Below, one piece after another: positions 23,801 through 62,838 of a stretch of DNA of 64,000 nt (positions are counted from its first letter, which is position 1; each line of letters starts with the position of its first letter). This stretch comes from an uncultured virus (IMG/VR IMGVR_UViG_3300020411_003822) (Duplodnaviria; Heunggongvirae; Uroviricota; Caudoviricetes). Position numbers and translations under genes: made by a program. Where the stretch lies: the IMG/VR virus record IMGVR_UViG_3300020411_003822; one strand, 5' to 3'. The notes under the pieces were generated by a model. The model had not been told where the DNA came from and did no database searches. It worked only from the letters and a program-made list of their open reading frames with translations.

Positions 23801-26800
23801 CAACCCTCCTCGTAAGCCTACCGTAACATTCTCCAAAAGCCCAAAGTCAGACAAAAAGATGGTTGCAGTATTCACCTACAATGATGGTCGGACAAAGACC
23901 ACCCATTTCGGTGCAAAGGGAATGTCAGATTACACAATACACAAAGACCCAAAGAGGAAAAAACGGTATTTAGACCGACACCGAAAGAACGAAAATTGGG
24001 ACGACTACACCAGTGCAGGTTCATTGTCAAGATACATTTTATGGGGGGAACCTACCTTGAAGGCCAGCATTGAATCATATCTGAAAAGATTTGGATTGAA
24101 AGAAACCAAGAAAAACCCAATGGCACCAGGATACCAATCATTCAGTTGGATAAGTCAAGACTGGAGAGCCGTTAAGGTAAACAACAAAGGTGAAATCGAT
24201 TATTCAGAAAAGTGTGGAGCAGAAGGGACACAAACAAAATCAGGGAAACCACGATTATGTTTGCCTCGCAAAGTGATCCAAACATTGTTGAGAACAGAAT
24301 CAGGAAAGGAGATATTGCGACAACAAGCAAGAAAGAAAGCGAGAGCCAAGAAAGGAGAGAGAGTCCCCTGGCATCCTCGAATCAAAAAACTCCACGCCAA
24401 ATTAGAGAAAGAAACAGTTCAAGACAATCCTCCAGTGTTTGAATCACCAACAGCAATGGACATGGGCATCCAATACGGAGACATAACAGGGCCAAGTCCA
24501 GAAGGCAAAGAAGGTAGTTCAAAGTGGCACAACCAACTCCTTGATGGAAAAATGTCGGATCTGCCTTTGAAGGCGGGAGCATGGAAGAAGCGTTCATTCA
24601 AGGCTGAAATGGGAATGCATTCACTCGAACATGAGGATGGCACACGCACAATCGGTTTCGTTGAGAAATTCGCAGATGATACTCGCCCATACACAGTTTC
24701 CCTGAAAATTGACGGGGACAGTAGCTTGGTTCACTTTGATGGTAAACAATCAGTTGTGTGGAACAAGCGTGGTCGCTGGCGCAGAAACTTCCACATCACC
24801 GACCAAATAACCACTTCGCTGAAAAAGAAAGGCGTGAAATCAGCACAGATTTTGGGTGAGTTGTATGCAGTAGACGAAGACGGGCTGGCCCTTTCCCTTA
24901 ACGAAATATCAAGCATCATCGTATCACCCAAGACTCAAGAACGACAGGACTCAATCAGGTTTGCTGGATTCGACCTTCTCGAACTAAACGGGAAGGACTT
25001 CTCTGAAACCCCATACGAAGAAAGAGTCTCCAAATTGATTGGGCTTCTTGAAGGCGAAGACATCATGATTGTACCGTTCTACCAAAGCAAAGGCGGGATG
25101 AAAGAGTTAGAACAGGCGTGGGAAGAAGGAATGAAAGAACCCAACTTCGAAGGCCTTGTCCTTAGATTTGAGGGCGAACCTAAATCATACAAAATCAAAA
25201 TGAAAGGGACTGCTGACCTTGCAGTATTCGGATTCTATCGTGGAAAAACAACAGAGACAGGCAGAGACAAAGACAGAGTAGGCGGAGGTGTACTTGCTTG
25301 GATGCTCCCTAACGGTGATTTCGTTTACGCAGGTAGATCTGTAATAGGGAAATCTCTCAAAGAGAAAGACGAACTGTTAGAATTACTATTGAAGGATTCA
25401 GTAGATGCGCCTTTGATTAAATTAAGAGGGAGAACGGTTGATAATTCAATCACCCATGATTCCAAAGGGAAAGGAACAATCACAATGGTTGCTCCCAAGA
25501 TGGTCGGAGAGTTCATGTACAGAGGAATCAACTGGGGAGAGAAACCTGTATTCAGATTCACAAAAGGAAAAGTAGAGGTTGTGGGGAAGATGAGAGCCCC
25601 TACAATGTTCCAAGCCTCATTCAAGAGATGGAGAGAAGACAAAGGCGTCAATCCTCACGATCTGCGCATGGAACAAATCCCTGTTGAGGGAACTGGCAAA
25701 TGGGGTCACATCAAAACCAACCCAGCAAAAAGCGTATGGGGTGAAGAAATCGAGATGCCAAAGAAATTGTACCATCTCACACTGGAAGAAAACCTACCAA
25801 GCATAATGGAAAACGGATTGGTGGCTAATCACGGGCCACTCACACGGGCATTAAAGAGACAACTCTACAAAGTTGCAATAGAACGAGGTTTGATTGAGGC
25901 GGACTTAGATTTTGAAGAATACATCAACTCATTCACCCCAAGAATTTTCATGACTTCCGAAATCGAAGATGCTTTATTTTGGAGAAGTAAAATGCCTAAA
26001 CATGATAATTTCGCCTTGATTGAAATAACAGTACCTGAAACACTCGAACTCAGATTGAATGGCTTGGAATGGACAACAACAGAAACAATAGCCCCAGGAA
26101 ATCTCAAAGTTGTCAACCCAGCAAAAGGCGTCACATTTGAGATTAAGCCCCATCCTGATTTAGAAGACGACCCATCGATAACTTCGTCTTTCTTAGTCGG
26201 AGAATTGGATGGCGAAGAAATCATCGGTGTAATCTTCAATGATGAGGGTGACAAATACCACATCGACCACATACATATCCAACGGAAACACAGGGGAAAA
26301 GGATACTCAAAAGCGACACTAAATTGGTTCAAATCAAAGGGAAAACCAATTGAACTGTACGCTCCAATCCAATCAGGAAAAGCACCCTGGTCAAAGGAGC
26401 GAGGCCGAAGAGACTGGTACAAGGGAATGTATGAAAGACAAGGTTTTGTGGAAATCAACGCAGACAGTGGATTAATGCGTTGGGAACCCGATGTGAAAGG
26501 GAACCCATCCATGAGAATGAAGCCAGTCACTGAAAAAAAATGGAATGCAAACTCCAGTTATCCTTTTGATAATCGAATGTTCGAAATACCAAACATCATG
26601 GTTTGGCCGAAATGGCACACAATCAAGGATCTAAGAGATAATCCAGACCACATCTTCTTGTTTGGAGACAACCAAGCCAGGAAGGGGAAAAAGGGCCAAG
26701 CACAAATCCGTGGTATGAAAAATGCAATGGGGGTTAGAACAAAGAGAATCCCATCCACTACGCCCAGTTCGTTTTTGGCAGACAAAAATTATCAATCTAA

Positions 26801-30620: not shown

Positions 30621-30637
30621 TTCAAACGGCTGGAGGG
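30621..30637 (+). promoter_or_regulatory. Conserved promoter motif TTCAAACGGCTGGAGGG
   Basis: Starts 31 nt before chaperonin ATG; same motif and spacing at other genes. Confidence 0.8.
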
Positions 30638-30651
30638 CTTAGGACTGTTCA

Positions 30652-32145
30652 ATGGATGAAGACTCCCGAATCATCAGAGGAAGAGATGCTCAAAGAATGA
30701 TTGTCGATACAGCATGGAATATGGCTGAAGCTGTTCGAGCAACTCTTGGTCCGAGAGGAATGGACATGATGCTTGTTGATAGGATGGGCAACCAAGTATT
30801 GACGAACGATGGCGCAACAATCTTGAAGTCACTTGAAACCAGAGATCCTATCGCTAAAATTATCTCGGAAGTAGCCAAGTCACAGGAACAAACAGCATTT
30901 GACGGTACAACAACCTGCATCATCTTGATTGGGGAATTACTACGCAGAGCAGACGAATTGGTTAATCGAGGACTTCATCCAAATGCAATTATCAAAGGAT
31001 ACAGAATAGGACTTGCCCAAGCACTTGAGTCGGCAAAGAAGAACGCTATTCCTATGGAGCCAATAGATGCGGCCTACAAGGTTGCACACACTGCAATGAC
31101 TGGAAAAAGTGCCGAGGACTTCGTTGAGAACCTTGCCAACCTTTGTGCCAATGCCGCAGCAATCGCAGAACCGTCCGAAATCAAACTGCTCACTTTCACA
31201 GGCCAACCTCAAGACGCAGAATTAATCGAAGGAGTTGTAATCCTGAAAGGTGCGGTAGCAAAGGGCATGCCCGAAGAGATTGATGGAAATGTGCTACTTC
31301 TCGAAGCAGAGTTCTCTCCTCCAATCGCAAATATCACTCTAACAGATCCACAAAAAATAGCAGAGATAACGCAAATACAAGAAATGTTCTTGAAAAACAG
31401 GTTTGAGAAAATCTCTGAACTAAATGTGAAAGCAATATTTTGCCAAAAAGGAATGGACAGTAGGGTTTCACAGTATCTTCGTAAAAACGGGATTCTTGCA
31501 TTCAAAAATATCCGCAGGTCAGATATGCATAGAATTAGCGCAGCAACAGGGGCAGAACCAATTACAGACATTGGCGACATCAACGAAGAAGACCTGGGCA
31601 AAGGAAAAGTAAGCACCCACAAATCTGCTAACGCCTATGCAGTAGTAGAAGGGGCGACAAGTAAAGCCGCCACCATTCTGATTCCAGCACCTACAGAGCA
31701 AGCCGCAGAAGAATTCCAAAGAGCCCTCGAAGATGCAGTCGGTGTGTCCTACCTTTGCGTCAAAGAACCATATGTCGTGGATGGCGCAGGGTCAATCCAA
31801 GCCAAGATGGCTAAACACATCAAAGAATCAAAACCCGAAGAGAACCCAAAGGTTGAAGCGGCTCGACTCGCATTTGGTGAGGCTTTGATGATCATACCTC
31901 AAACTCTTGCCGAATCAGCAGGGATGGACATTATGGATGCGACAGTAAAAATGGCTAACAATCCTGAACTCGGTGTCGATGTGAACGGAATGACTCTAAG
32001 AGAAATGGAAGTGTTCGAACCTCTTGCAGTTGTGAGTTCCGCAATGTCAAGTGCAGTTGAAAATGGTGTATCTCTCTTACGCACGCACAGTATAGTGATG
32101 GCTAAACCCATACAAGAGATATTTGGAGAAAGAGCAAACGAATAG
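30652..32145 (+). CDS. Group II chaperonin (thermosome-like subunit)
   Basis: TLGPRGMDMML, TNDGATIL, DGTTT, FCQKGMD, RALEDA, IPQTLAESAG, EPLAV. Confidence 0.95.
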   Translation: MDEDSRIIRGRDAQRMIVDTAWNMAEAVRATLGPRGMDMMLVDRMGNQVLTNDGATILKSLETRDPIAKIISEVAKSQEQTAFDGTTTCIILIGELLRRADELVNRGLHPNAIIKGYRIGLAQALESAKKNAIPMEPIDAAYKVAHTAMTGKSAEDFVENLANLCANAAAIAEPSEIKLLTFTGQPQDAELIEGVVILKGAVAKGMPEEIDGNVLLLEAEFSPPIANITLTDPQKIAEITQIQEMFLKNRFEKISELNVKAIFCQKGMDSRVSQYLRKNGILAFKNIRRSDMHRISAATGAEPITDIGDINEEDLGKGKVSTHKSANAYAVVEGATSKAATILIPAPTEQAAEEFQRALEDAVGVSYLCVKEPYVVDGAGSIQAKMAKHIKESKPEENPKVEAARLAFGEALMIIPQTLAESAGMDIMDATVKMANNPELGVDVNGMTLREMEVFEPLAVVSSAMSSAVENGVSLLRTHSIVMAKPIQEIFGERANE

Positions 32146-47877: not shown

Positions 47878-48070
47878 TATGCTCAAAAGACTGCTAATTA
47901 GGTACGAATGGCTCATTGTAATGGGGGCTCTTATTGCAATATTGGCAGCCCTCAATGGAATGGGTATCACATCAATTAATTCAGATTACTTTTGGTCGCT
48001 TGCTGGGGCTATTGTGGTGGGTGAAGGTGCTATTGAATTGTACTACGAAAGCAAGGAGGATTCACAATGA
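47870..48070 (+). CDS. Small two-helix membrane protein
   Basis: Two hydrophobic segments; coupled to the recombinase gene. Confidence 0.7.
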   Translation: MNNMLKRLLIRYEWLIVMGALIAILAALNGMGITSINSDYFWSLAGAIVVGEGAIELYYESKEDSQ

Positions 48071-48885
48071 GAGCAGTCATCTACACAAGGGTATCTACAG
48101 TAGGGCAAGAGAAGGATGGGCTTTCGCTCGATGAGCAAGAAAGACAGTGTAAGGCCCTACTTGAGATACACAACCACGAATTAATCAAGACATATACTGA
48201 CACAGGATCAGGAGGTGGCTTCGAACACCGCCCAGGTTACAAAGAAATGATGAGCGAAATCGGAGAAGAATGGGATATTGTGTATGTGTGGAAACTTGAC
48301 AGGCTGAACAGAAACCTCACAAACTCAGTTAGATTCTTCGAGACATTAGGAGAAAGTGACGCATACATCGCATGTGTAACCGAACAAGTGGACACATCAT
48401 CTCCAATGGGTCGCTTTATCATCAATGTAATGTCGTCTCTCGCACAAATGGAAAGAGAGCAAACCAAAGAGCGCGTAATAATGGGTAGTGAAGCCGCAAG
48501 AAGAGCCGGTAGATGGACAGGTGGAATCCCCTACGGCTACCATATTCCAATTGAACACGATTCCTCAGGAAACAGAGTAAACAGGGGTATTCTTGTTGAA
48601 AATACTGATGAATCGCCAATAGTGCAGAAGATATTCGAGATGTATGGGTCGGGGTTGAGTATCTCTGCAATATGCAATCAACTTGTTATGGATAGAATCT
48701 TAACCAGAAAAGGCAACATCATATGGTCGCAAAACACAGTATCTGGAATAATTAGAAGAGCAGATCTATACATCAAAGGGCACAATAGTGAAGGAGAGGC
48801 GGTTTTTTCTCCAATCGTAGCACTTACTCAAGATGAAGCACACCAAATATACCGTAGAAGGGGAAGCCTGGAGGAAGAGGAATAA
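48067..48885 (+). CDS. Serine recombinase (catalytic + recombinase domains)
   Basis: YTRVST, RPG, VWKLDRLNR, DTSSPMGR, AQMERE, GGIPYGY, W.QNTV..I. Confidence 0.93.
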   Translation: MRAVIYTRVSTVGQEKDGLSLDEQERQCKALLEIHNHELIKTYTDTGSGGGFEHRPGYKEMMSEIGEEWDIVYVWKLDRLNRNLTNSVRFFETLGESDAYIACVTEQVDTSSPMGRFIINVMSSLAQMEREQTKERVIMGSEAARRAGRWTGGIPYGYHIPIEHDSSGNRVNRGILVENTDESPIVQKIFEMYGSGLSISAICNQLVMDRILTRKGNIIWSQNTVSGIIRRADLYIKGHNSEGEAVFSPIVALTQDEAHQIYRRRGSLEEEE

Positions 48886-52668: not shown

Positions 52669-53067
52669 TCACCCCACTACAATGTCGGTGTTTAACGGGT
52701 TAATCTTGTCCAATAGCGTCTTATCCACAGGGATGGGCAATAGTGGAATAAGGAAAGCAGCACTTAACACAGAAAGACCAGCCGCCTTCTGTTTTCTCTT
52801 TCTGGCCAAAAATGGCTTCTTGGCCTTTCCGCCTCTGTCCCATTGTTCTTTTGCTTCCATAGCAGTCACCAATGAACCTAAAACACAAACCAAAGTCGTA
52901 CCGACAGCAAGGCCATCCATCTTTGCTCCTGGAACGGGCAGACCAACAGTTGCGACAGCTTTCAAAGACTCTTGCCCAGTAGTGGTGTTTTTGACTTGCT
53001 GAGTTACAGTAAGTCCCATCTTTCGTTCCATTCGCTTTGCTTCTCTAATCATATCTCGCCCATTCAT
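52669..53067 (-). CDS. Membrane protein
   Basis: GGGTGA RBS; two hydrophobic segments. Confidence 0.75.
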   Translation of the reverse strand: MNGRDMIREAKRMERKMGLTVTQQVKNTTTGQESLKAVATVGLPVPGAKMDGLAVGTTLVCVLGSLVTAMEAKEQWDRGGKAKKPFLARKRKQKAAGLSVLSAAFLIPLLPIPVDKTLLDKINPLNTDIVVG

Positions 53068-53078
53068 GTGATCACCCG

Positions 53079-53375
53079 TTACAGTTTTGTGTACACTCCA
53101 AATCCAGCCGCACAGAAAAGCATGAAGCCAAGTATAGCAGTCATCAAGCCTTCTGGTGTAAGTGCATCACCAGCAGTGACTATCAAGAACAAAGCAACAA
53201 TAAAACAAGCAATCATCTGTATGACAATTACATGCTTCATCAATTCCTGTCGTGGATTGAACCACTCGTTCATCAATTTTGTAACAGTCAAATTGTCTTT
53301 GCTTTCAGGCTTTGCAATAGAATCAAGGATATTGGAAATATCTCTTTGCTCTGATTTTTCTGCCATCAATTTCAC
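53079..53375 (-). CDS. Two-helix membrane protein
   Basis: Two strong hydrophobic helices. Confidence 0.75.
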   Translation of the reverse strand: MKLMAEKSEQRDISNILDSIAKPESKDNLTVTKLMNEWFNPRQELMKHVIVIQMIACFIVALFLIVTAGDALTPEGLMTAILGFMLFCAAGFGVYTKL

Positions 53376-54112
53376 CTTCCTACTCCTGGTGGTGGTGGCG
53401 GTTGATGTGAAGCAGGTGCTACAGGAACACCAACTGCTCGAAGAGCCGTGTTCGTCACGCCGCCAACAACTGCACTCAACATACCACCTTTTCTGCCGCC
53501 ACCGTCAGTCAATTCTGCCACGATTCCTTCCATGCCGCCTTGAGCAGCAATAAGGCCTGCAGCCTGTCTGTGATCAGCAAGCAATGCATCTGCTTGAGCA
53601 ATAAGTGTGTTCCGAAGCTGTTCTGAAATAGCCGTCATCGATGTTGATACTTCAGCCATCGTCATTGTACTCAGTTCCTTTCCTCTATCAGTAGGTTGCT
53701 CTGCTAATGGTTGTAAAAACATCTGCCCTGAATCATCTTGTACCATTCCGAGTTTGTATTCCTTGAAGAATGAAACTAATTTGTAATCAATCAAAACCGA
53801 CAAAAATTGAGCGAGTGCTGGGAATCCTTGTTCAGAAGCCAAGAATCGAGAAACGGGAGTTGAAGATTTGATTATATCAGAGATAATATCAATCTCGGTT
53901 GGTTGCCCGTCCCAATAACCCAAGCGTTGGTAGATCATTGCCGCTGTAGCAGCATTCATCTGTGGATTAGTCGCATATTGTTGGTATCCGCCTTGTCCAC
54001 CAGGGGCTTGTGGTTGAAATGGATTCCCTACGGGCGCAGGCGCAGCCGCAGGTGCGAGAAAACCGTTCGCTGAGGCTGCAGGTTGAGGGTTCGAAAAGAA
54101 ATTATCCGCCAT
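53372..54112 (-). CDS. Hypothetical protein with P/Q/A-rich termini
   Basis: ORF in the GTPase operon; ends in PPPPPP. Confidence 0.8.
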   Translation of the reverse strand: MADNFFSNPQPAASANGFLAPAAAPAPVGNPFQPQAPGGQGGYQQYATNPQMNAATAAMIYQRLGYWDGQPTEIDIISDIIKSSTPVSRFLASEQGFPALAQFLSVLIDYKLVSFFKEYKLGMVQDDSGQMFLQPLAEQPTDRGKELSTMTMAEVSTSMTAISEQLRNTLIAQADALLADHRQAAGLIAAQGGMEGIVAELTDGGGRKGGMLSAVVGGVTNTALRAVGVPVAPASHQPPPPPGVGR

Positions 54113-54115
54113 TGT

Positions 54116-54916
54116 TCACACTCCGCTCTGTGCAACCGATAACGCTTCAACGCTTGAGTGTTCCGCTTCATCGGCAATTTGTTCTGCGGCCCTCATAACC
54201 CTCAAATCAAGGGTAATTGTCGTTAAATCTGTCTCATCGGTAAGTGGATTTTTGTATTCCTTAATATCAATCCCTCTGCCTTGATTTTCTATGCACAATT
54301 GGTAAAATGGCTCCAGTGCGGCCACAAGACCAGGTTTTTGCTTAGATGTCTTCGGCCTGTCCGTTATTGGGACCATCTTAATGCGCTTTCTTTTCCAAAG
54401 CCAAACAGACATCTGCCCCTGATTGTCCAGGTGCTGTTGTTGCTTCCATTGCGTGTAGAGCCAGTAAAGTTGGAGCAGTTCAGGGCAATATGATGAACGG
54501 AGAGGGTATCCAGAATCAACACTGGACAGGGCAGTAAAATGAGAATCCTGTCCCGAAAGTTGGTCCTTGAAAAAATGTCCCGAAAGAGTTGTGCCAGAAT
54601 CAAGCGGCTTCAATGTATCAGGATCCAACAATGGCTTAGTGTAAGCATCAGGCCCCAATGCAGCAAGCCTGATTCCAGTAACACAACATTGGCCAGCATC
54701 ATTGAACCGTGAGAAGTTAAGCGGCCACACCGACCACCATGACTTCGTTGGTTTGAGAAGCTTCCTTGCTTTCTTGATATTTTTCTTCCTTCTGCGTATC
54801 GGATCAGGGTCCTGGTCGAAGTCAAACTTCACTTGGGGATAGTAATCCGGAACTGGTCCGTAGGTATCGTCCATGTACATGCCAGCAGTCCCAGCCGATT
54901 TAATGCTTTGATTCAA
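54116..54916 (-). CDS. Hypothetical protein with Cys motifs
   Basis: Coupled to the GTPase gene; QCCVTG, SYCPE. Confidence 0.75.
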   Translation of the reverse strand: MNQSIKSAGTAGMYMDDTYGPVPDYYPQVKFDFDQDPDPIRRRKKNIKKARKLLKPTKSWWSVWPLNFSRFNDAGQCCVTGIRLAALGPDAYTKPLLDPDTLKPLDSGTTLSGHFFKDQLSGQDSHFTALSSVDSGYPLRSSYCPELLQLYWLYTQWKQQQHLDNQGQMSVWLWKRKRIKMVPITDRPKTSKQKPGLVAALEPFYQLCIENQGRGIDIKEYKNPLTDETDLTTITLDLRVMRAAEQIADEAEHSSVEALSVAQSGV

Positions 54917-55652
54917 GCAAATCCCAAATAGTGGACTCTACTTCCCAATTTCTCAGTGCGCTCATAGGTCGTTTTATTGTTGGAATCAAATGCCTTTGAA
55001 GGCGTGTTAATTCATGTTTGAACGGCTCAAAAATAGGGTGTTCGTTCATTCTTCGAGTGCCCCAGTGCTTCTCCCAGTTCTCATCAAGCCAAACATCAGC
55101 CTTGTTGGCGACAAGTCCCACGATAAGGGGCTTGTAGGCTTTGGCCTTCTTCTTCATTTTACGCTCTGTAAATGGATAATCATTATTCACAATACAATCC
55201 ACAAATCTCCTGAATGAATCTTGTTGTGTTGTGTCATTCTTGTCTCGAAGATGCCTATGATCTATCATCCAAATAACAACCTCGACATTTCTCCCCACCA
55301 TGTCACGCAACCATAAGTCGAAGTATTTCGGGTGGCCACCCAGGTCAGTTGATACAATTGTTCGCTTTGCCGAACCCAAAGTAACGGTGTTATGTACGGC
55401 AATTCTTTTCCTGGTGGCTGGCGGTGGCAGATAGCGCCCCAAATTCGGGTCAAAGGGATGATGAGTAGTTGTATCGAAATCCTCAGGATCTATATGCTCC
55501 AGTTCACCAGTTGTGGATAGTTGGCGACTTAGCGTAGTTTTGCCAACTCCCCAAGTGCCGTATGTGCCAAATGTATGACTTCTCCATGTCTGCCACAGAT
55601 GCTTGAGATACAGAAAACCTCCATAGGCGATGGCAAAACTGCCTTCGACCAT
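54900..55652 (-). CDS. Small Ras-superfamily GTPase, Arf-like
   Basis: G1 GTWGVGKT, G2 PAT, G3 DLGG..KY..LW, G4 NKAD, G5 SAL; hydrophobic N-terminal helix. Confidence 0.85.
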   Translation of the reverse strand: MVEGSFAIAYGGFLYLKHLWQTWRSHTFGTYGTWGVGKTTLSRQLSTTGELEHIDPEDFDTTTHHPFDPNLGRYLPPPATRKRIAVHNTVTLGSAKRTIVSTDLGGHPKYFDLWLRDMVGRNVEVVIWMIDHRHLRDKNDTTQQDSFRRFVDCIVNNDYPFTERKMKKKAKAYKPLIVGLVANKADVWLDENWEKHWGTRRMNEHPIFEPFKHELTRLQRHLIPTIKRPMSALRNWEVESTIWDLLESKH

Positions 55653-55654
55653 GC

Positions 55655-56413
55655 TTAATCCCAATCCGTGATTGGTCCGATGTCGGCTCCCTCATCTTCA
55701 TCCTCGACTTCATCTTCATCCTCATCGTCATCCCAATCATCAAACGAATCAAAATCATCATCATCATCATCATCATCGTCTTCATCATCAACAACTTCGA
55801 GGGGAACCAATTTGGGTTCTTCAACTGGTTCATCCACCATCTTAGCGGTGCTTCCAGTATCGGCCTCCATCTCTGCACGAATCTGCAATCGGAGAGCATC
55901 CATCACAGAATCAGGAATTTCAGGTTCAGGTTCAGCCTTTGGTTCCTCTTTCAATTCGGGTGCAGAAGCTACAGGTTCTTCGGCCACATCTTCATCGGGC
56001 TTCAAATCATCTGCATTCTCACTAATCAAACTTGGAACAAAATCATTCAAACGCATATGATACTGTGGTGTATCTGTGCCAGAGTCAGTCCATAGGAGAT
56101 TCAAATCATAGGCTTCCATGATAACTGCGACAAGTGCGTGCCACTTGATGTAATCAATATCTGTTCTCCCACGATGGTGAACGGCAATAGAAACTGCCCA
56201 ATTGTGAACCCAGCCTACCTCATCAGCCCACTCTCTGTATTCGGGCTGCAGATCAGTACGCAGGTCCTCAAGTCGTATTCGAAACCTTCCTTTTGCAAAA
56301 ATCCAATTAGAATCGTCAGTTGGTTGCTCACTCATGCCGAAGGCTCTTGCAACAGAACTGGCAGGGGACTTTGCAGGTTTACGCTGAAATCCGAGAAATA
56401 CTTTCATCGTCAT
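55655..56413 (-). CDS. Hypothetical protein with very acidic C-terminus
   Basis: D/E tract; promoter motif 30 nt upstream. Confidence 0.8.
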   Translation of the reverse strand: MTMKVFLGFQRKPAKSPASSVARAFGMSEQPTDDSNWIFAKGRFRIRLEDLRTDLQPEYREWADEVGWVHNWAVSIAVHHRGRTDIDYIKWHALVAVIMEAYDLNLLWTDSGTDTPQYHMRLNDFVPSLISENADDLKPDEDVAEEPVASAPELKEEPKAEPEPEIPDSVMDALRLQIRAEMEADTGSTAKMVDEPVEEPKLVPLEVVDDEDDDDDDDDDFDSFDDWDDDEDEDEVEDEDEGADIGPITDWD

Positions 56414-56423
56414 TGAACTGCCC

Positions 56424-56443
56424 AGGGCTCTCAGCCGTATGAA
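56424..56443 (-). promoter_or_regulatory. Promoter motif TTCATACGGCTGAGAGCCCT
   Basis: 30 nt upstream of ATG 56413. Confidence 0.8.
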
Positions 56444-56647
56444 TCAACCGCCTAAGTTGAATAGCCAGCCTACAAGGGAAAAGTCAAAAATATACTCGAT
56501 AACAGAAACAGAAAAGGCAGAAATCAATATGCCCGCAACAGTATATCCAATAATTTGCATTCTAAACCAACGCAGATCCCACTTGTTTTTTTCACTAAAT
56601 GCTAAAGCCATCGTCTCGAAGGCCTTCTCTGCATCTGATGGAAACAA
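56444..56647 (-). CDS. Small membrane protein
   Basis: Hydrophobic C-terminal half; start uncertain. Confidence 0.7.
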   Translation of the reverse strand: MFPSDAEKAFETMALAFSEKNKWDLRWFRMQIIGYTVAGILISAFSVSVIEYIFDFSLVGWLFNLGG

Positions 56648-56660
56648 AGAAGCGATAAAA

Positions 56661-57092
56661 TCACCTCATGTTATCGAGACCAATTAGAGGCACATCATTC
56701 AGACCTTCGCCTGTTTGTTCCTCAAGTTTCCTTCTTTGGTCTTCCATAGCCCCTTCCATCATCCTTCTTTGACCTTCCATCTCAAGGGACATTTGGAAGC
56801 GTTGAAGTTCTGCATTCATTTTCTTCATGCTTCTCCTGGATTGAGTCATCATTGTTTGAATGTAAGTTTGATCTTCGAGTCTTTCTTGGAAGAAAATCTT
56901 GTACAACATGAACGACACCATCTGGACGAAAGTAGCCGCCATCATGTATAATCCTCCTACCTTGAACCAATTATCTTCACTTGGGAACCACAGTTGTTGC
57001 TGGTGAATAGCAACTGCTGCGCCAATCAAAAATGAATTGACAAAAAGTAAGGTAAAAATCCGTAGAGTATTGTAGTCTCCGTCCTCTGCCAT
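56661..57092 (-). CDS. Two-helix membrane protein with C-terminal coiled coil
   Basis: Two hydrophobic helices then an M/Q/R/E-rich helix. Confidence 0.8.
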   Translation of the reverse strand: MAEDGDYNTLRIFTLLFVNSFLIGAAVAIHQQQLWFPSEDNWFKVGGLYMMAATFVQMVSFMLYKIFFQERLEDQTYIQTMMTQSRRSMKKMNAELQRFQMSLEMEGQRRMMEGAMEDQRRKLEEQTGEGLNDVPLIGLDNMR

Positions 57093-57105
57093 GACTGCGC
57101 CACCA

Positions 57106-57121
57106 CTTTCTGCCGTTTGAA
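57106..57121 (-). promoter_or_regulatory. Promoter motif TTCAAACGGCAGAAAG
   Basis: 29 nt upstream of ATG 57092. Confidence 0.75.
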
Positions 57122-57127
57122 CCTACC

Positions 57128-57787
57128 TCAATCGTATGCAACACCTAATGCACGGTGTCCTAAAGCAACCATTGCAGCACCAGCGAGAGCACCAATAAGG
57201 CCCCCAGTGACTCTATCTTTCCGTTTGTCTCCGACATAAGCGCCAATGACCGCAGGGATTCCAATTCCCAACAACAATGTCGAAGGCATCATTAATGCTT
57301 CCTTCCAATCCTTAACTTTGGTTTTCTTGTATTGGTTCATCTTCATCAATGAGAAAAGGCCAACCGCACTACCAACAACTGCTATTGAACCGCCAACATA
57401 CGGGTTGGACAGTCCCTCGGTCCATGCAGGCGTATCATTTCGACCACCAAAATAACCGCCAATAGCGCCTCCTACGATTCCAGATACAGCAGTCCTATTT
57501 CTTTGCTCCTTCTGCGTCTTACCTGCTGCTGAAGAAGCCAAATATCCCAAAGCACCTCCGACCAAACCTCCCAGGACACCATAAGCGACAGGATCAGTAA
57601 TGTAAGTTGTATTGCCCATTGGCTTTGAGCCATTTACCTGGACAGGAGTAGCTATGTTGCCGACCAAAGTGGGCGCATTTGTGTTCATAGCATTAACACG
57701 GTTCATTCTTGATTGGTGGGTTTCACCAACTCTTTGATTCCCAAGTAGTTCGTAATTTGTTTTTCCAATATGGCTCGCAGGCATCAT
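57128..57787 (-). CDS. Glycine-zipper multi-pass membrane protein
   Basis: GVLGGLVGGALG, GIVGGAIGG, GGLIGALAG. Confidence 0.8.
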   Translation of the reverse strand: MMPASHIGKTNYELLGNQRVGETHQSRMNRVNAMNTNAPTLVGNIATPVQVNGSKPMGNTTYITDPVAYGVLGGLVGGALGYLASSAAGKTQKEQRNRTAVSGIVGGAIGGYFGGRNDTPAWTEGLSNPYVGGSIAVVGSAVGLFSLMKMNQYKKTKVKDWKEALMMPSTLLLGIGIPAVIGAYVGDKRKDRVTGGLIGALAGAAMVALGHRALGVAYD

Positions 57788-58296
57788 TCTAAATCATCCT
57801 CCTCTTCTCTCAATGCAGCATCTGCCGCTTGTTGTAGTGAACTTAACTCATCGTCAGTCATTATGATCTCTCCTCTGCGCCTCTTATCCTGTTCTTCAGC
57901 CAATTCTTGAAGAGATTCTCCCATTTCCGCAATGTCTTCTAATTCTTCTTCTTCTTCCTCGAACGCATCCTCGACAAAACCACCATCTGCCTGTGGTCTT
58001 CCAAATGCGGAAGTAGAAACGGCTAATCTATATGCGATAGAAATGCCTGAGTAAGCACTTCTTCTTGTAATTCGAACAACCTGTTCAGCAGGCCACCCAG
58101 GTTCCATGTTCTGCCTTTCATCGTAGGGTATTGCAAGAGCAGCAGAAAGGAGGGCTGGATCATCAATTGCAATTTGAGGTAATTTGGAAAAATCCGACAC
58201 AGATGTAATGTCCCACGGTTCCAATTCTTTCAGTGCTACATCGTGAGAAATAATCTCGTGTAGTGGCACCATTGAGTGCTCTAACGCTCCCGCCAT
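57784..58296 (-). CDS. Acidic hypothetical protein
   Basis: Motif variant TTCAAGCGGT 29 nt upstream (58325). Confidence 0.75.
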   Translation of the reverse strand: MAGALEHSMVPLHEIISHDVALKELEPWDITSVSDFSKLPQIAIDDPALLSAALAIPYDERQNMEPGWPAEQVVRITRRSAYSGISIAYRLAVSTSAFGRPQADGGFVEDAFEEEEEELEDIAEMGESLQELAEEQDKRRRGEIIMTDDELSSLQQAADAALREEEDDLE

Positions 58297-58341: not shown

Positions 58342-58500
58342 TTATTCAGAATCTTCTGAATCAAGGATCTTTTGGGCCAACGCCAAAAGTTCCGTGTAAG
58401 CAACATGAACTGTGTTATCAGGTACTTCTTTCTTGAGTACTACTTCGTTTCCGGCTTTGTTCTTGAAGGTATAGACGACTGTGCAATCTTGGTCTCGCAT
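58342..58500 (-). CDS. Small hypothetical protein (52 aa)
   Basis: MRDQDCTVVYTFKNKAGNEVVLKKEVPD...; ATG exactly 30 nt from a promoter motif. Confidence 0.7.
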   Translation of the reverse strand: MRDQDCTVVYTFKNKAGNEVVLKKEVPDNTVHVAYTELLALAQKILDSEDSE

Positions 58501-58511: not shown

Positions 58512-58530
58512 AGGGTCTCAGCCGTATGAA
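58512..58530 (-). promoter_or_regulatory. Promoter motif TTCATACGGCTGAGACCCT
   Basis: 30 nt upstream of ATG 58500. Confidence 0.8.
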
Positions 58531-59339: not shown

Positions 59340-60146
59340 CTAATCACCTCTGTTAGATACTACTTTACCAATTACAGAGTTCCATTGAATCAAAGCGTCA
59401 TTTCTCCACTTTGGAACACCAGAAACAAAAGCAGTTGGTATTTCAGTCGCGTCTTGAAATAGACGATCATGCGTACTCGTATGATTTTTGCCCCTGTAGC
59501 ATAGAACCTTTGTGTCTTCACACCATGCCACAGAACAACCTGCTCTCCACAAACGGAGGCCAAAGTCACAATCCTCTTGTCCATAAACACCATCAAACAA
59601 CAAATCAAAACCGCCTACTCTCTTCCATGCATCCTTCGTAAATGCCATGTGCATGCCATAGAAATGATTTGCCGCCCATGCTCCATCAGCACGCTTCTCA
59701 TCACCCAATCGTGAATCAGCCATAGGGCCTTGAATGATTTCTCCATCGTCTTGGATAACATCAAAAGTCGAAATCGATGCATCAAATCCTATTCGTGCGA
59801 TATTCAAATGCGAAAGTAAAGAGCCCTCGTAAAAGGCTGTTAAATCATCAATAGAAACAATCCAATCTCCAGTGCTTGCATTAACTCCCGCATTTCTTGC
59901 ACCAGAAGGGCAAGGCCCAAGTGCAGTAGGTTCATCACGAACATATACAAAATCAATATCTGGAATTTGAGCCATTGCTTGCTTGTACAAATCCTCTCTC
60001 GTTTCCCAAAGACGATCAACATAAACCAACTCTAAACTACAATCGTGTTTCTTCAACTCAGGCGCAGATTTTTGCAAGGAACGAACTAAATCTTCGAAAC
60101 CGGCCTTCTCACGGGCAGTTATCACCATTACACTCAACTTGTTCAA
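59340..60146 (-). CDS. Glycosyltransferase family 2 (GT-A)
   Basis: ARNAG...GDWIVSIDD, VGGFD..F..YGQEDCDFGLRL; TTG start after GGAGG. Confidence 0.9.
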   Translation of the reverse strand: MNKLSVMVITAREKAGFEDLVRSLQKSAPELKKHDCSLELVYVDRLWETREDLYKQAMAQIPDIDFVYVRDEPTALGPCPSGARNAGVNASTGDWIVSIDDLTAFYEGSLLSHLNIARIGFDASISTFDVIQDDGEIIQGPMADSRLGDEKRADGAWAANHFYGMHMAFTKDAWKRVGGFDLLFDGVYGQEDCDFGLRLWRAGCSVAWCEDTKVLCYRGKNHTSTHDRLFQDATEIPTAFVSGVPKWRNDALIQWNSVIGKVVSNRGD

Positions 60147-60262
60147 GGTAAATCCTCCATTCTGATTAATGTCCCACAAAAATGACACACCATATGGTGT
60201 ATGCAAGCCTCTTGCCCGCATCTGCGGCAAGTTATCGTTCCACTACTACTGTGAATCCCCAT
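60143..60262 (-). CDS. Zn-ribbon microprotein (39 aa)
   Basis: CRRCG...CHFCG; coupled at both ends. Confidence 0.65.
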   Translation of the reverse strand: MGIHSSSGTITCRRCGQEACIHHMVCHFCGTLIRMEDLP

Positions 60263-60355: not shown

Positions 60356-62809
60356 TTATTCCTCCTCATCTGTTTGCGAACTTTGTGCTGTATTGTATTC
60401 CAGCAAATCCTTCGCATCATTATCAACCCATATTGGTTTGACGGGCATCACCCTATCCGGCCTAACAGACCACACAGAACAAACCTTGCTATACAAATCC
60501 AAGTGCTTTACTGCAATCTTGCCCCAATCTCTGTCTGCAGCCAAAGCCTCCACCCTCTGACCCATCTCCTGATAGGTTCTCTTGTCGGAATGGAACATAT
60601 TTACTGCAGTTTGAATAGCAACAGCCAGTGTCTTAGGATCTCGCTTGGAAGCTTTGATACAATGGACTCCGCCTATCAAATCTCTCAACCTGCCTTCATC
60701 TGTGCAAATCAAAGGTTTACCTGCGCCCAATGAACGCATAACAGCGCCCGATGTACTCAAAATCTCATGCCCTGGAACCCCACTGTAAGGGAACACAACA
60801 AAATCAGTTGCAGACAACATAAGGTCAAGCCTGTCATCATCCAAAAACTCTCGAATGAATGAAACTCCTGGAATACGCTCCGCAAGTTCAGCACATTGTT
60901 GCAAATAGGGCTCAACCTCCCAATGGGGGTGATCTCCAGCGTAAATTACCGCTTCGAAATAAGGACACAAATTCTCTCTTTGAACAATTTCAAGCGCCCT
61001 GATAAAATCCAGGGTGCCTTTAGAACGGGAGGCAAATCCATAGTTCAACAACATAGGCACGCCATCTGGAATCTTTGTCTCTGCCCTGGCCCCCTGCAAT
61101 TGGAGATGTTTGATAATGCCGTGAGGGATATGGGCAACAGGAGGGAAAACCCTGCCTCTAATCTCTTCAGCAACGAACTCATTGTGTGTAACAAAAGCGT
61201 CTGCAAAACTGGAGTGTGCAAGCAGGTGGCTCCACGCACCATCATGCGCATCACTAACAAAATCAGGAGTGTGGTATGTGAAAACAACTCGTGCATCAGT
61301 GTGGCGTAAGACTTCCCACATTTCCCTTGAACGACTAAACAATGCCCATTCATGCTGGACATGAATAACATCAGGGCGTATGTCATCAAGCGCCTGCTGC
61401 AGTGCACCTCCCGCATCATAGTTACGATCCCAACATCGAAGAACCTTGATAGGCCCTTCCAAATCAAATGCTCCTATAGGATATTCTTGAGTAGCTTCAG
61501 CCAAGACAAACACTTCTTGGTTTTGTCTTACCAAAGAGTCGGCAAGCATTTTGGTATATGTTGCGATACCACAATTCGTATCGTAAGTAGACAAAAACGC
61601 AACTTTCTGCATTTTTCTCGGAGACCGAACTGAAAGTTCCGGCTTATCTTGATTCAGAGAACTTTTTTTCATCAGCCTCTGTACAGTTGGCAAATAATGC
61701 TCTTCGAAAACCCTATCAAAATCATAATCTTCAGCCCACTGAATGCATTTTTGATGCCTATCGTGATATTTCCCTTCCTTCCATTCCTTGTAACATGTCT
61801 CCAAACGCACAACAATATCGTCCACACTTGGTATTGGATAATTGACACCGAGGTGATTTCTCGACTCCTTAGGTACAACCATTAGATCTGCATGCGCATT
61901 GAGTTCCTTCATGGCCCCGAAGGCTGTATTGATTACTGGAGTTCCAACTGCTTGTGCTTCTATCTGATAAATGCCAAAGCCTTCCTGAGATGAGCAATGT
62001 AACAACACATCAAGCCCAATTAACAAATCTCCCATTTCCTTTACAGTCAAACCTCTCCCTGAATCATACGATGAAGTGGACATGACTGTACCATGAGGGA
62101 GTAATTCGAGCATGTGGCCTATTTCTTCGGCTTGGAAGTGATTTGAACCCTTAACCCATAATCGAACATCTTCTTTGTCTGCAGCAAACCGTACAAAAGC
62201 CTCGATGTTTTCCTTTGGACATTTCCTCAAAGACATGTCGCCCAAAAATCCTACCAAAAAGCATCCTGTTGCATGCCTAAATGTTGCAGAAGCACGCACT
62301 GCTCTATGTGATGAAGACTGCTTAACCAATTCGGGGTCATATCCATGAGGCAAATATGACGGTGCAGGGAAATGTTGGTGAATAACCTCTGCGCCAAACC
62401 TGCTGATGCCCGCCAATTCATTTGCAGAATGCAAATCTGATATGTCGTGCGTGTTTAGATCATCTCCATCAACAGGAACCATCAGAAGAGAATTACGAAT
62501 GCCTTTCGTCAATTGCCCCCAATTGCGAAAGTTACCAAGACCAATCAAGCACCAATTTTCAATGAGATTTCTCTTACGCCAATCCAGAATATGACTTGCC
62601 AAATCGTTAGAAGTAAGTTTGCCAGGTAATTCTGAACAACCGTACACTTCAACCCCGTTTAATTCGAACATTTGTCCAGCGTAACCGTAATCACAAATAT
62701 GTGCAACAGAATATCCAGCGGCTTTCAAGCGTTCTCCAATCATTCTCAACTGACTACCGTAGCCCGTCTGTAGCATGGGTGGGTTTCCCAACAACACTAC
62801 GCCGTCCAT
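60356..62809 (-). CDS. Tandem double glycosyltransferase family 4 (GT-B)
   Basis: Domain 1: TGYG, EGFGI..IEAQAVGTPVI; domain 2: CGIATYT, HVQHE, GF...KG, PY...SGA...GKPLI. Confidence 0.9.
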   Translation of the reverse strand: MDGVVLLGNPPMLQTGYGSQLRMIGERLKAAGYSVAHICDYGYAGQMFELNGVEVYGCSELPGKLTSNDLASHILDWRKRNLIENWCLIGLGNFRNWGQLTKGIRNSLLMVPVDGDDLNTHDISDLHSANELAGISRFGAEVIHQHFPAPSYLPHGYDPELVKQSSSHRAVRASATFRHATGCFLVGFLGDMSLRKCPKENIEAFVRFAADKEDVRLWVKGSNHFQAEEIGHMLELLPHGTVMSTSSYDSGRGLTVKEMGDLLIGLDVLLHCSSQEGFGIYQIEAQAVGTPVINTAFGAMKELNAHADLMVVPKESRNHLGVNYPIPSVDDIVVRLETCYKEWKEGKYHDRHQKCIQWAEDYDFDRVFEEHYLPTVQRLMKKSSLNQDKPELSVRSPRKMQKVAFLSTYDTNCGIATYTKMLADSLVRQNQEVFVLAEATQEYPIGAFDLEGPIKVLRCWDRNYDAGGALQQALDDIRPDVIHVQHEWALFSRSREMWEVLRHTDARVVFTYHTPDFVSDAHDGAWSHLLAHSSFADAFVTHNEFVAEEIRGRVFPPVAHIPHGIIKHLQLQGARAETKIPDGVPMLLNYGFASRSKGTLDFIRALEIVQRENLCPYFEAVIYAGDHPHWEVEPYLQQCAELAERIPGVSFIREFLDDDRLDLMLSATDFVVFPYSGVPGHEILSTSGAVMRSLGAGKPLICTDEGRLRDLIGGVHCIKASKRDPKTLAVAIQTAVNMFHSDKRTYQEMGQRVEALAADRDWGKIAVKHLDLYSKVCSVWSVRPDRVMPVKPIWVDNDAKDLLEYNTAQSSQTDEEE

Positions 62810-62820: not shown

Positions 62821-62838
62821 CCCTTTCAGCCGTTTGAA
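62821..62838 (-). promoter_or_regulatory. Promoter motif TTCAAACGGCTGAAAGGG
   Basis: 29 nt upstream of ATG 62809. Confidence 0.8.

Follow-up and report, generated by a model that had tools for sequence, protein, structure and literature searches.

A conserved gene cassette around a divergent Arf/SRbeta-like GTPase in viruses linked to ocean archaea

The small GTPase encoded in the 64,000-nucleotide stretch of DNA analyzed here (the window) almost certainly lies at the center of a genuine conserved cassette. Six genes follow one another in the same order and on the same strand in 78 of the 80 related viral contigs: TMCC, tm67, the GTPase, p266, a 246-aa protein (p246) and tm98; the remaining two are truncated by the contig edge. 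The guanine-nucleotide motifs of the window GTPase are intact, and the protein has a Ras-superfamily fold. We consider that the cassette products may form a GTP-switched complex acting on the host membrane, a reading to which we assign a probability of roughly one half. The cassette was not described in the literature searched.

The six-gene block and its carriers

The window comes from a large virus-like element of marine origin, akin to the viruses that infect abundant archaea of the ocean, and the archaeal-virus setting that an earlier note on this DNA had suggested for the GTPase is supported. The cassette is common to 74 contigs of tailed magroviruses (clade II) and to the six loci of the window's own clade (clade I). 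A terminase gene lies on the same strand, 6.9-9.8 kb downstream of the cassette, at 74/74 clade-II loci and at 0/6 clade-I loci. Members of the window's clade measure ~128-135 kb, and two of them, G001 and G002, are complete (~128 kb, direct terminal repeats, CheckV 100%). Searches with Pfam and a single protein query detected no TerL, HK97 capsid or PolB in these two genomes, both of which keep a HerA/FtsK-type ATPase. Most large ORFs of the window carry no annotation. Because it is shared by tailed magroviruses and a clade without detectable tailed-virus genes, the cassette is independent of virion type.

Loss of the neighbors had been named beforehand as an argument against a functional module; instead, the block is kept across the 80 viral contigs, and the neighbors of the GTPase are conserved far beyond chance. 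The GTPase always lies on the same strand as its five constant partners, of which two are membrane-hairpin proteins, one is a single-pass membrane protein and two are soluble or peripheral. Median gaps between neighbors range from -4 to 30 nt in five of six pairs, the exception being the 174 nt from the GTPase to p266, which lies immediately downstream at all 80 loci. The tm67 gene (79/80 loci) immediately follows TMCC at a median distance of 6 nt, and tm98, recovered at 80/80 loci with an iterated profile, is invariably last. The flanking TM, TM-coiled-coil, glycine-zipper and poly-Pro proteins described in the earlier note are all present where it placed them (Table 1). As an account of the cassette's make-up, its list holds for the membrane-protein block, which is conserved, but not for the glycine-zipper (4/80 loci), acidic (5/80) and 132-aa (3/80) proteins or for the poly-Pro tail, which are clade-specific.

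Table 1. Cassette genes, clade-specific additions and promoter-like motifs in the window
Feature	Position	Strand	Remarks
Promoter-like motif, third copy	58516..58530	-	Exact; ends 15 nt before ATG at 58500 opening a small ORF
Glycine-zipper membrane protein (219 aa)	57128..57787	-	PF05433 Glycine zipper 2TM, E 6.7e-6, 26.4 bits vs cut-off 24.2
Promoter-like motif TTCAAACGGCAGAAA	57107..57121	-	Exact match; ends 14 nt before TMCC ATG
TMCC, core gene 1 (TM/membrane hairpin + coiled coil, 143 aa)	56661..57092	-	First in block, 78/80 loci
tm67, core gene 2 (67-aa single-pass membrane protein)	56444..56647	-	Hydrophobic residues 31-59
Promoter-like motif TTCATACGGCTGAGA	56429..56443	-	Exact match; ends 15 nt before acidic-gene ATG
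Acidic protein (252 aa, poly-Asp/Glu tail)	55655..56413	-	Between tm67 and GTPase, window's clade only
GTPase, core gene 3	54900..55652	-	Divergent Arf/Sar/SRbeta-like; 250 aa from likely ATG at 55652
p266, core gene 4 (254-aa soluble protein)	54116..54880	-	ATG start; open frame extends to TTG at 54916
p246, core gene 5 (246-aa protein)	53372..54112	-	80/80 loci by iterated profile, 44/80 by single-sequence search
tm98, core gene 6 (98-aa membrane hairpin)	53079..53375	-	Hydrophobic residues 44-75, 76-96
132-aa protein, accessory in window's clade	52669..53067	-	Hydrophobic residues 50-72, 94-115

No known relatives were found for any of the five partners, and a comparison of the block with Pfam and PHROGs revealed no lytic enzyme and no known holin. 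TMCC has a hydrophobic segment at residues 9-31 (assigned by script), and in its alignment a further hydrophobic stretch is conserved, while the C-terminal half is helical and charged. It has no relative among PDB sequences at E<=1 and none in PHROGs at E<=0.001; its sole Pfam row, Mga (E 0.032, under the cut-off), is not credible. The AlphaFold (AF2) model of p266 reaches a pLDDT of 81.9, and the protein has no Pfam match, no PDB sequence match and no fold match (Foldseek best E 1.2, VIA best Z 4.4); a Cys/His cluster found in its tailed relatives is missing from the window's clade. The N-terminal region of p246 is rich in Gln, Pro and Gly, its middle is helical and its C-terminal end is Gly-rich; the window protein terminates in QPPPPPGVGR. 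Its only PDB profile match below E 0.01, to the 5cyb "Lipoprotein" chain (E 0.0039), covers the low-complexity N-terminal region only and was rejected as homology, and the Atlas gave no usable match.

Among the additions peculiar to the window's clade, the glycine-zipper protein is accessory and is hydrophobic over residues 130-148 and 163-185, and the homologues of the acidic protein, which had no Pfam or PHROG match, are all near relatives. The small ORF opened by the ATG at 58500 is followed by an Rpb5-like gene (57784-58296) and then by the glycine-zipper gene. Glycosyltransferases adjoin the cassette in this clade.

The promoter-like motif TTCAWACGGCWGARA matches the window seven times against 1.05 expected, a number reached in 0/100 shuffles. 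Four copies are exact, the three in Table 1 and one at 62824-62838, all on the minus strand and ending 14-16 nt before an ATG. The copies noted previously near the GTPase were recovered, the one at 58516-58530 lying beyond the range then considered. The core TTCAAACGG is also found upstream of the orthologous TMCC gene in loci L003 and L004, and at the site orthologous to 56429..56443 the core is retained in L001, L002, L004 and L006, with diverged flanks. The motif at this site is likely to mark the start of the transcription unit containing the GTPase.

Motifs, fold and kinship of the GTPase

Numbered on the 254-aa ORF, which extends to a TTG at 55664 (54900-55664(-)), the GTPase displays G1 (G36-x4-G41-K42-T43), G2 (T67), G3 (D107-L-G-G110, followed by H111, Y114 and W118), G4 (N187-K-A-D190) and G5 (S235-A236). 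G1, G3 and G4 show no variation among 45 aligned relatives, G36, G41, K42, T43, D107, G109, G110, W118, N187, K188 and D190 being invariant in 45/45; T67 is present in 43/45. The position after DxGG is occupied by H (n=25), Q (n=17) or E (n=3), residue kinds able to participate in catalysis. The N-terminal hydrophobic and aromatic helix recognized previously is predicted at residues 8-27 and is conserved. Its hydrophobicity is too low for a membrane span, its hydrophobic moment is moderate (0.22-0.51; 0.36 in the window protein), and the model confidence of this region is modest (pLDDT 54-76).

The AlphaFold model of the GTPase (pLDDT 85.6, pTM 0.81) retrieved at least 500 small-GTPase matches with Foldseek (best E about 1e-9), with Ras, Ral and Rap on top. 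VIA placed Arf6 first (Z 16.5, rmsd 2.6, 162 aligned) and Sar1 second (Z 15.8); Rag, Rab and G-alpha fall within about 1.5 Z of these and count as tied, and SRbeta scored 15.1, 14.1, 13.9 and 13.9. The description of the protein as an Arf/Sar-style GTPase with G1-G5 is therefore borne out, in that the motifs are conserved and the fold is closest to Arf6/Sar1, other GTPases being tied.

The window GTPase matches no GTPase family in Pfam at E<=0.1, its best row being KAP_NTPase (E 0.0053, under its cut-off). Among 45 members, Arf is the commonest Pfam family (19/45, sub-threshold) and SRPRB appears once. In 25 weaker, longer relatives, Arf is the best family in 16, 15 of them above the cut-off, and SRPRB in 2; SRPRB also shows up in several other distant relatives. 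Against the PDB, the family profile matches the Asgard GTP-binding protein 8oun (E 1.1e-4) and Arl8 chains (about 1e-3). A homologue search found 90 proteins, one of which is labeled "signal recognition particle receptor subunit beta" by one source. The family has 130 matches among 1.84 billion proteins, and only 7 contigs of the genome collection carry the GTPase. Affinity to Arf holds by profile. In the phylogenetic comparison advocated in the earlier note, the tree does not join the family to Asgard Arf-like proteins with support (split SH-aLRT 80). The family is virus-specific, Arf/SRbeta-like and very divergent.

Like eukaryotic Arf, Arl8 and Sar1 and Asgard ArfR, the window protein is a P-loop GTPase with an NKxD motif, and its DxGG(H/Q) ... 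W stretch resembles the switch II of Arf/Sar1. It shares with the Arf family a hydrophobic N-terminal helix directly before strand 1, as well as the structural (Arf6/Sar1) and profile (Arl8, 8oun) matches given above. It differs in scoring under the Pfam Arf threshold, in having about 30 extra switch I residues and inserts after helix 3 and G4, and in being virus-encoded and placed apart from Asgard Arf-like proteins in the tree. ArfR itself is described as "almost exclusive" to Asgard archaea in a preprint (bioRxiv 10.1101/2024.02.28.582541). Mimivirus Rab (PDB 5xc5; Z 15.0 to the window model) is likewise a virus-borne Ras-superfamily switch; however, it is the Rab of a eukaryotic virus, whereas the GTPase studied here is Arf/Sar-like, belongs to archaea-linked viruses and is part of a fixed cassette that also encodes membrane proteins.

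Possible roles of the cassette

The link to the membrane comes from three core partners with hydrophobic hairpins or a single span. In the mechanism that we propose, these three integral membrane proteins would make up a platform within the cytoplasmic membrane of the host. The GTP form of the GTPase would dock on it by means of the hydrophobic helix at its N-terminus, the cytosolic coiled coil that TMCC provides, or both. Once docked, it would recruit or control p266 and p246, candidate effectors or GAP- or GEF-like partners, and the complex would deform or breach the host membrane late in infection. Of the purposes that such a complex might serve, we tentatively favor egress or vesiculation as the likeliest. 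In two incomplete genomes of the host lineage, the Arf, Ras and OapB families had no match, so that the virus would supply a switch absent from its host.

These properties recall the ArvA-ArvB-ArvC operon of Euryarchaeota and DPANN. The Haloferax small GTPase ArvA is reported (PMC10927574) to possess an amphipathic helix at its N-terminus and, in concert with two proteins of its operon, to drive the formation of extracellular vesicles. The system operates in archaea that lack ESCRT and is the sole experimentally shown case of archaeal GTPase-driven membrane budding. The viral protein likewise combines an N-terminal hydrophobic helix with conserved operon partners. Identity with ArvA was rejected, as there is no homology beyond the P-loop: hhalign aligned the family over 39 columns (probability 64%) with an ArvA homologue whose gene adjoins an OapB gene in L089 and which matches Pfam MMR_HSR1 at 54.7 bits. 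No cassette protein contains an OapB or OapC domain, and the viral block differs in having three additional integral membrane proteins.

The resemblance to SRbeta, the Arf-like subunit of the eukaryotic SRP receptor, raises the rather unlikely alternative that an SRbeta-like switch on viral membrane proteins directs proteins of the virus or the host to the membrane; the same estimate covers a variant in which the switch would gate a channel, serving for example superinfection exclusion or host takeover, and no membrane would be remodeled. The high structural scores of SRbeta, the SRPRB matches of distant relatives and the name given to one member agree with such a role. However, no SRX/longin-like partner of the SRalpha kind was recognized, p266 having no fold match; the GTPase N-terminus is not a membrane span, unlike that of SRbeta; and just one of the 45 members matches SRPRB.

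We regard it as unlikely that the clade-I cassette builds membrane vesicles that move the ~128-kb DNA between cells, in what would resemble haloarchaeal plasmid vesicles. The glycine-zipper protein, the acidic protein and the 132-aa membrane protein would then expand a block that tailed relatives use for release. This idea accommodates the gene content of G001 and G002, with its conserved ATPase, the extra membrane proteins and adjoining glycosyltransferases of clade I, and the vesicle formation driven by ArvA-type GTPases in Euryarchaeota (PMC10927574). Against it, the absence of a capsid derives from Pfam and one protein query, and the unannotated large ORFs could encode divergent structural proteins. 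Moreover, the HerA/FtsK family includes ATPases that package DNA into membrane-containing icosahedral virions.

The same ATPase, together with the several small membrane proteins of the block, would fit a role in drawing lipid from the host to make an internal membrane of the virion or a membrane-bound assembly compartment. Acquisition of the virion membrane had been among the first suggestions for this module. Tailed virions have no membrane, and 74/80 cassette contigs are tailed, with a terminase on the same strand 7-10 kb downstream; it is therefore improbable as a general role. The six core genes are, moreover, the same in both clades, and we hold this explanation to be quite unlikely. A defense or counter-defense system, in which an NTPase senses infection or a rival element and triggers membrane damage, is very unlikely: conflict systems commonly pair small membrane proteins with an NTPase, and KAP_NTPase is the best, sub-threshold Pfam row of the window GTPase, but position and order stay fixed even in relatives with only 37% identity, the block invariably preceding the terminase by 7-10 kb where the contigs are tailed, which suits a core viral function and not a shuffled accessory island.

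Returning to the GTP-switched complex on the host membrane, the cassette is a candidate for the means by which such virus-like elements act on the membrane of their host.

The conserved gene core and its promoter-like motif

Nine close-packed ORFs fill the minus strand from 52669 to 57787 of the window. An Arf-like small GTPase, transmembrane (TM) proteins, a TM and coiled-coil protein (TMCC), a glycine-zipper protein and a protein ending in poly-Pro had been described here from the sequence; all of these ORFs are present, and the description was accurate. The likely start codon of the GTPase gene gives a product of 250 aa, in agreement with database cluster P0001; the residue numbers used below are those of the 254-aa open frame.

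Features of the GTPase region and of other parts of the window
Feature	Coordinates	Strand	Remarks
3041-aa ORF	17883-27008	+	PAP2, GNAT acetyltransferase, guanylate kinase, DUF5754, ATP-dependent DNA ligase and DUF7831 in one frame; flanked by ORFs of 1026-1243 aa without family match, except YbjQ_1 (small domain) in the 1243-aa ORF
Motif, two-mismatch copy	30621-30635		ahead of thermosome gene
Thermosome-type chaperonin	30652-32145	+	Cpn60_TCP1, E 5e-112
HerA/FtsK-like ATPase, 277 aa	32271-33104	-	
Serine recombinase	48067-48885	+	Resolvase, E 2.4e-34, and Recombinase domain; kept in 5 close loci
p132, 132 aa	52669-53067	-	two hydrophobic segments
tm98, 98 aa	53079-53375	-	hairpin protein
p246, 246 aa	53372-54112	-	C-terminal end QPPPPPGVGR
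p266, 266-aa ORF	54116-54916	-	likely ATG 54880
GTPase	54900-55664	-	central ORF; likely ATG 55652
Acidic protein	55655-56413	-	
Motif, exact copy	56429-56443	-	
tm67, 67 aa	56444-56647	-	single-pass
TMCC	56661-57092	-	membrane hairpin and coiled coil
Motif, exact copy	57107-57121	-	
Glycine-zipper protein	57128-57787	-	PF05433, E 6.7e-6, exceeds Pfam cut-off
Rpb5-like protein, 170 aa	57784-58296	-	RNA polymerase Rpb5 C-terminal domain (Pfam E 2.9e-9, exceeds cut-off), long acidic tail; overlaps start of glycine-zipper gene by 4 nt
Motif, exact copy	58516-58530	-	
GT2-type glycosyltransferase	59340-60230	-	directly upstream of cassette region
817-aa protein, two GT4-type modules	60356-62809	-	directly upstream of cassette region; exact motif copy
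Motif, exact copy	62824-62838	-	

At least 467 IMG/VR contigs encode a relative of the GTPase, and the best 80 of these were analysed. With single sequences as queries, p266 was found to adjoin the GTPase in 80/80 loci, and TMCC, p246 and tm98 were recovered in 77, 44 and 15; iterated profiles found p266, p246 and tm98 in all 80, tm67 in 79 and TMCC in 78, with one ORF per locus. The order TMCC-tm67-GTPase-p266-p246-tm98, together with the strand, is identical in 78 of these best 80 loci (of at least 467). In the two exceptions, L005 and L070, no more than about 350 nt separate the GTPase gene from the end of the contig. The GTPase has three integral membrane partners and two soluble ones, and the six genes are strictly co-inherited. 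Synteny across viruses had been proposed in the earlier note as a check, and loss of the neighbours as grounds for giving up its reading; the core neighbours have been kept. Other genes of the region are found only in the closest relatives: among the best 80 loci, the acidic protein occurs in 5, the glycine-zipper protein in 4, and p132 and the Rpb5-like protein in 3 each, and the poly-Pro tail of p246 is restricted to the window's clade (loci L001-L006). The conserved unit is thus a six-gene core, of which the window carries an expanded version. The idea of a GTPase inside a conserved cassette of membrane proteins therefore stands, whereas the glycine-zipper protein and the poly-Pro tail, which had been counted as parts of it, are clade-specific. 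Within the tailed magrovirus clade (L007-L080), the gap between the GTPase and p266 genes has a median of 174 nt (up to 1056), most other junctions being tight.

The window contains 7 occurrences of the motif TTCAWACGGCWGARA, where chance would give 1.05; a count of 7 was reached in 0 of 100 shuffles. Copies near the cassette had been noticed before; three exact ones do lie there, between 56429 and 58530, and a fourth stands farther upstream. These exact copies and the two-mismatch one end 14-16 nt ahead of an ATG. At orthologous sites in relatives of only 50-84% protein identity the core TTCAWACGG is kept and the surrounding bases diverge; it precedes the acidic gene in L001, L002, L004 and L006, and the TMCC gene in L003 and L004. 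By what is generally known of archaeal transcription, a position of roughly -33 to -16 relative to the ATG would suit a TATA/BRE-type promoter and a leaderless or near-leaderless mRNA. If this reading holds, the cassette would be expressed as two units, TMCC-tm67 and acidic-GTPase-p266-p246-tm98-p132. Contigs from RNA libraries match short parts of tm98/p132, p246, p266 and TMCC with 0 mismatches. Being contigs, to which carried-over DNA may have contributed, they give at most a weak hint of transcription, and the parts left uncovered are uninformative.

The GTPase and its relatives

The G1-G5 motifs are complete, as had been claimed, and were followed through an alignment of 45 family members (A1). 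G1 corresponds to G36-x4-G41-K42-T43, G2 to T67, G3 to D107-L-G-G110 followed by H111, Y114 and W118, G4 to N187-K-A-D190 and G5 to S235-A236. G36, G41, K42, T43, D107, G109, G110, W118, N187, K188 and D190 are invariant (45/45); T67 is kept in 43 members, S235 in 35 and A236 in 37. The position following DxGG is occupied by H in 25 members, by Q in 17 and by E in 3. The GTP switch is intact. We take DLGGH to be a Sar1-like trait and the W after switch II an Arf-like one.

In the AF2 model, which is confident (pLDDT 85.6, pTM 0.81), a helix at residues 8-27 leads into the first strand, and switch I carries inserts of low confidence. Foldseek returned at least 500 matches at E ≤ 0.001, those listed being all small GTPases, which confirms the small-GTPase fold; Ral, Ras and Rap ranked at the top (E about 1e-9). 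VIA, a comparison independent of Foldseek, placed Arf6 first (Z 16.5 and 16.4), followed by Sar1 (15.8), an Asgard Rag-like protein (15.4), SRbeta (15.1) and a mimivirus Rab (15.0). Since these scores lie within about 1.5 Z, they lean to Arf/Sar1 and leave the family undecided. On its motifs and its predicted six-stranded G-domain fold, the protein is a small GTPase of the Ras superfamily.

Sequence profiles place it less closely. The window protein by itself matched no Pfam GTPase family at E ≤ 0.1, with no row for Arf (PF00025), and its sole match among PDB sequences was Arl10C (E 0.88, over the switch II stretch). For the 45 members the commonest Pfam family was Arf (19/45 at E ≤ 0.01, best 2.3e-4), all of these Arf matches staying under the Pfam gathering cut-off; others were GTP_EFTU (10), KAP_NTPase (7), Roc (6), MMR_HSR1 (5), RagA (1) and the SRbeta family SRPRB (PF09439; 1). 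NCBIfam gave the generic small_GTP model only, in 17/45. The family profile run against PDB sequences found 8oun at E 1.1e-4, four Arl8 chains at 8e-4 to 1.4e-3 and SRbeta at 0.015; RecA rows topping this search were rejected as homology, being repeated P-loop matches. The code 8OUN occurs twice in the ArfR paper (10.1101/2024.02.28.582541). Searched against 1.84 billion representatives, the profile yielded only 130 proteins at E ≤ 1e-3, mostly fragments. Among 25 distant relatives taken from the longer, weaker of these hits, the best Pfam family was Arf in 16 (15 above cut-off), SRPRB in 2, MMR_HSR1 in 2 and Roc in 1; 2 had no family and 2 were multi-P-loop proteins. Some members bear the database names 'GTPase SAR1 family protein' or 'SRP receptor subunit beta'. 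Unlike SRbeta, the window GTPase has no N-terminal membrane anchor (no 19-residue window exceeds 1.6 on the Kyte-Doolittle scale).

The phylogeny suggested in the earlier note was built from 67 rows, comprising the window protein, 18 of the 45 A1 members, 23 distant hits, one ArvA, and Asgard proteins drawn from Arf-type (8 of 39) and Ras-type (16 of 33) matches; eukaryotic references and MglA were left aside. The viral family forms a clade (SH-aLRT 97) within a loose set of Arf/SRbeta-like metagenomic proteins, apart from an Asgard Ras-like clade (SH-aLRT 97). In this tree, without eukaryotic references, a join of the viral family with the Asgard Arf-like rows (SH-aLRT 80) was not supported. 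ArvA formed a very long branch. We conclude that the family forms a lineage of its own, borne by viruses and of the Arf/Sar/SRbeta kind, and that membership in the Arf family proper is not demonstrable. Motifs, fold and conserved gene order together uphold the original observation of an Arf-like GTPase cassette; the reading given to it in the earlier note is supported in part.

The Arf interswitch toggle moves the register by two residues between the GDP-bound and the GTP-bound state; for the viral protein there is a single predicted conformation. An Arf hallmark, according to 10.1101/2024.02.28.582541, is an amphipathic helix at the N-terminus with which the GTP-bound protein attaches to membrane. 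The N-terminal hydrophobic and aromatic helix noticed from the sequence of the viral protein coincides with the predicted helix of the AF2 model, which is conserved, aromatic and hydrophobic, does not span a membrane and has a moment of 0.22-0.51 across members. By calculation it is moderately amphipathic only, so that docking of the GTPase on a membrane through this helix is put forward as a hypothesis.

Partner proteins and the archaeal precedent

The five core partners are without known relatives. For p266 the AF2 model is confident (pLDDT 81.9), and neither Pfam, with 45 relatives included, nor PDB sequences gave a match. Its fold found nothing closer than E 1.2 in a Foldseek search of the PDB and Z 4.4, the noise level, in VIA against 48,161 chains; BFVD contains a single unnamed match (E 3.5e-4, TM 0.28). 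An RNase H assignment, suggested by Atlas clusters at 0.87-0.88 with 127-133 shared features, was rejected as falling under the tool's own bar. In the alignment of the p266 family (A2), C82, C84, H147, H149, H152 and C155 recur across the tailed clade (in 21-38 of its 38 rows), and in the window's clade I/V, L, L, Q, W and T/S replace them in 7/7 rows. Only C77 (45/45) and C144 (44/45) persist among the Cys/His residues. A metal site, if there is one, would thus be non-essential to the p266 family. Neither p246 nor TMCC has a credible relative among PDB sequences, p246 giving only a low-complexity row (5cyb) and no usable match in the Atlas. PHROGs has no family for the cassette proteins, except for a weak match of the glycine-zipper protein to one of unknown function.

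The nearest working archaeal precedent for the cassette is the ArvA-ArvB-ArvC system, in which ArvA with ArvB and ArvC drives vesicle formation in Haloferax, as described in PMC10927574. An ArvA homologue, chosen by its OapB neighbour gene, was aligned with the viral GTPase by hhalign over 39 columns around the P-loop only (probability 64%, from a single-sequence template of limited sensitivity); with only the P-loop aligned, the viral GTPase is not an ArvA. Beside an ArvA gene one expects OapB (PF09846, ArvB) immediately downstream and DUF2072 (ArvC) close by; Pfam matched neither in the region's 13 proteins nor in 45 relatives of p266, and hhalign gave ArvB a probability of 0.1-0.2% against p266 and p246, no cassette protein being ArvB-like.

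Carriers of the block and its possible role

A large terminase gene lies 6.9-9.8 kb downstream of the block, on the same strand, in 74/74 of the more distant loci among the best 80 (of at least 467); the one in L039 is confirmed by Pfam and PHROGs. It is found downstream in 0/6 close loci, four of them with flanks long enough to reveal it. Two records of the window's clade, G001 (128.8 kb) and G002 (127.6 kb), have direct terminal repeats (DTRs) and a CheckV value of 100%, and are complete by IMG/VR criteria. Neither matched the terminase of the more distant loci, Terminase_6C, Phage_capsid or the tailed-virus capsid protein, a profile-limited result that divergent forms could escape, nor DNA_pol_B or RNA_pol_Rpb1_2 at the sensitivity of these profiles. 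In a tailed control genome (G003) the terminase, capsid and PolB queries all matched. Absence here means no detection with the profiles used, in a window whose large ORFs are mostly unannotated; in this sense the tailed-magrovirus (Magrovirales) set of HK97 capsid, large terminase and family-B polymerase was not detected in the window's clade. The HerA/FtsK-like ATPase of the window has HerA as its best PDB match (8wiv, E 1.2e-5); among PHROGs it matches 2666, 'terminase large subunit' (E 3.9e-12). It recurs at 44-49% identity in G001 and G002, is absent from a tailed magrovirus, and may serve this clade in DNA packaging or transfer.

Magrovirus 'group D', according to PMC5434244, carries DNAP, a thermosome, a resolvase and RNA polymerase A. 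The window has the thermosome and the resolvase in common with it; the label, considered on account of thermosome, resolvase and Rpb5, was dropped because G001 and G002 gave no match to PolB or to RNA polymerase A/Rpb1 domain 2. The window's thermosome is 51% identical to the G001 copy and 32-37% to archaeal and tailed-virus copies. A host call from it was discarded, 36-37% identity to Poseidoniales against 35% to an Asgard copy affording no discrimination. GTPase relatives occur on only 7 contigs of the species-genome collection: L086, of 106 kb, belongs to a genome labelled Candidatus Poseidoniales, and the other 6 are short contigs in assorted bins that look like viral DNA carried along in binning. 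Neither Arf/Ras family matches (E ≤ 1e-5) nor OapB were found in two incomplete Poseidoniales-type genomes (1.2 Mb each). Thirteen studies contributed marine metagenomes that contain parts of the window stretch, its probable source being one of them. In the surface ocean, magroviruses rank with the most abundant viruses (PMC5434244, PMC11706807).

The block is independent of particle genes. Being common to elements that may differ in particle type, it would act on the host and not form part of a particular virion. What the window adds is that the block crosses element types, that it is accompanied there by extra membrane genes and a promoter-like motif of its own, and that its p266 is without the Cys/His cluster. 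Most probably the membrane proteins would mark a site in the host membrane, to which the GTPase in its GTP form would bind through its N-terminal helix, the TMCC coiled coil or both; it would control p266 and p246, and the complex would bend or open the membrane. In tailed relatives the block lies upstream of the morphogenetic genes and is co-oriented with them, which fits a late function such as release.

To our knowledge, no route is known by which tailed archaeal viruses leave their hosts, and we know of no egress system in Magrovirales. The holin proposal in PMC11706807 concerns Adrikavirales. The word 'GTPase' is absent from the main texts of PMC5434244, PMC11706807, PMC10160649, PMC8651126 and PMC10768690 and from the readable supplementary text of the first two, though supplementary gene tables may carry such an annotation; in the literature on archaeal-virus small GTPases or Marine Group II virus GTPases we found no such cassette. 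It is tempting to speculate that one Arf/Sar-like cassette serves both the tailed magroviruses and the DTR elements of about 128 kb, in which capsid, terminase and polymerase genes went unrecognised, and that in the latter the expanded cassette buds DNA-carrying vesicles, a proposal to which we would give about one chance in eight. If true, a prokaryotic mobile element would encode its own coat-like system driven by a GTPase, one that arose outside eukaryotes and Asgard archaea.

A conserved block with a membrane-type GTP switch offers a concrete, expressible and assayable target for the question of archaeal-virus egress. GTPase-driven membrane budding was long held to be eukaryotic, and was later joined by ArfR of Asgard archaea and ArvA of euryarchaea. 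The present family would be a third, virus-borne Arf-like lineage, whose five partners have no known relatives, one of them with a confident model and no fold match, and it bears on the history of Arf-like switches.
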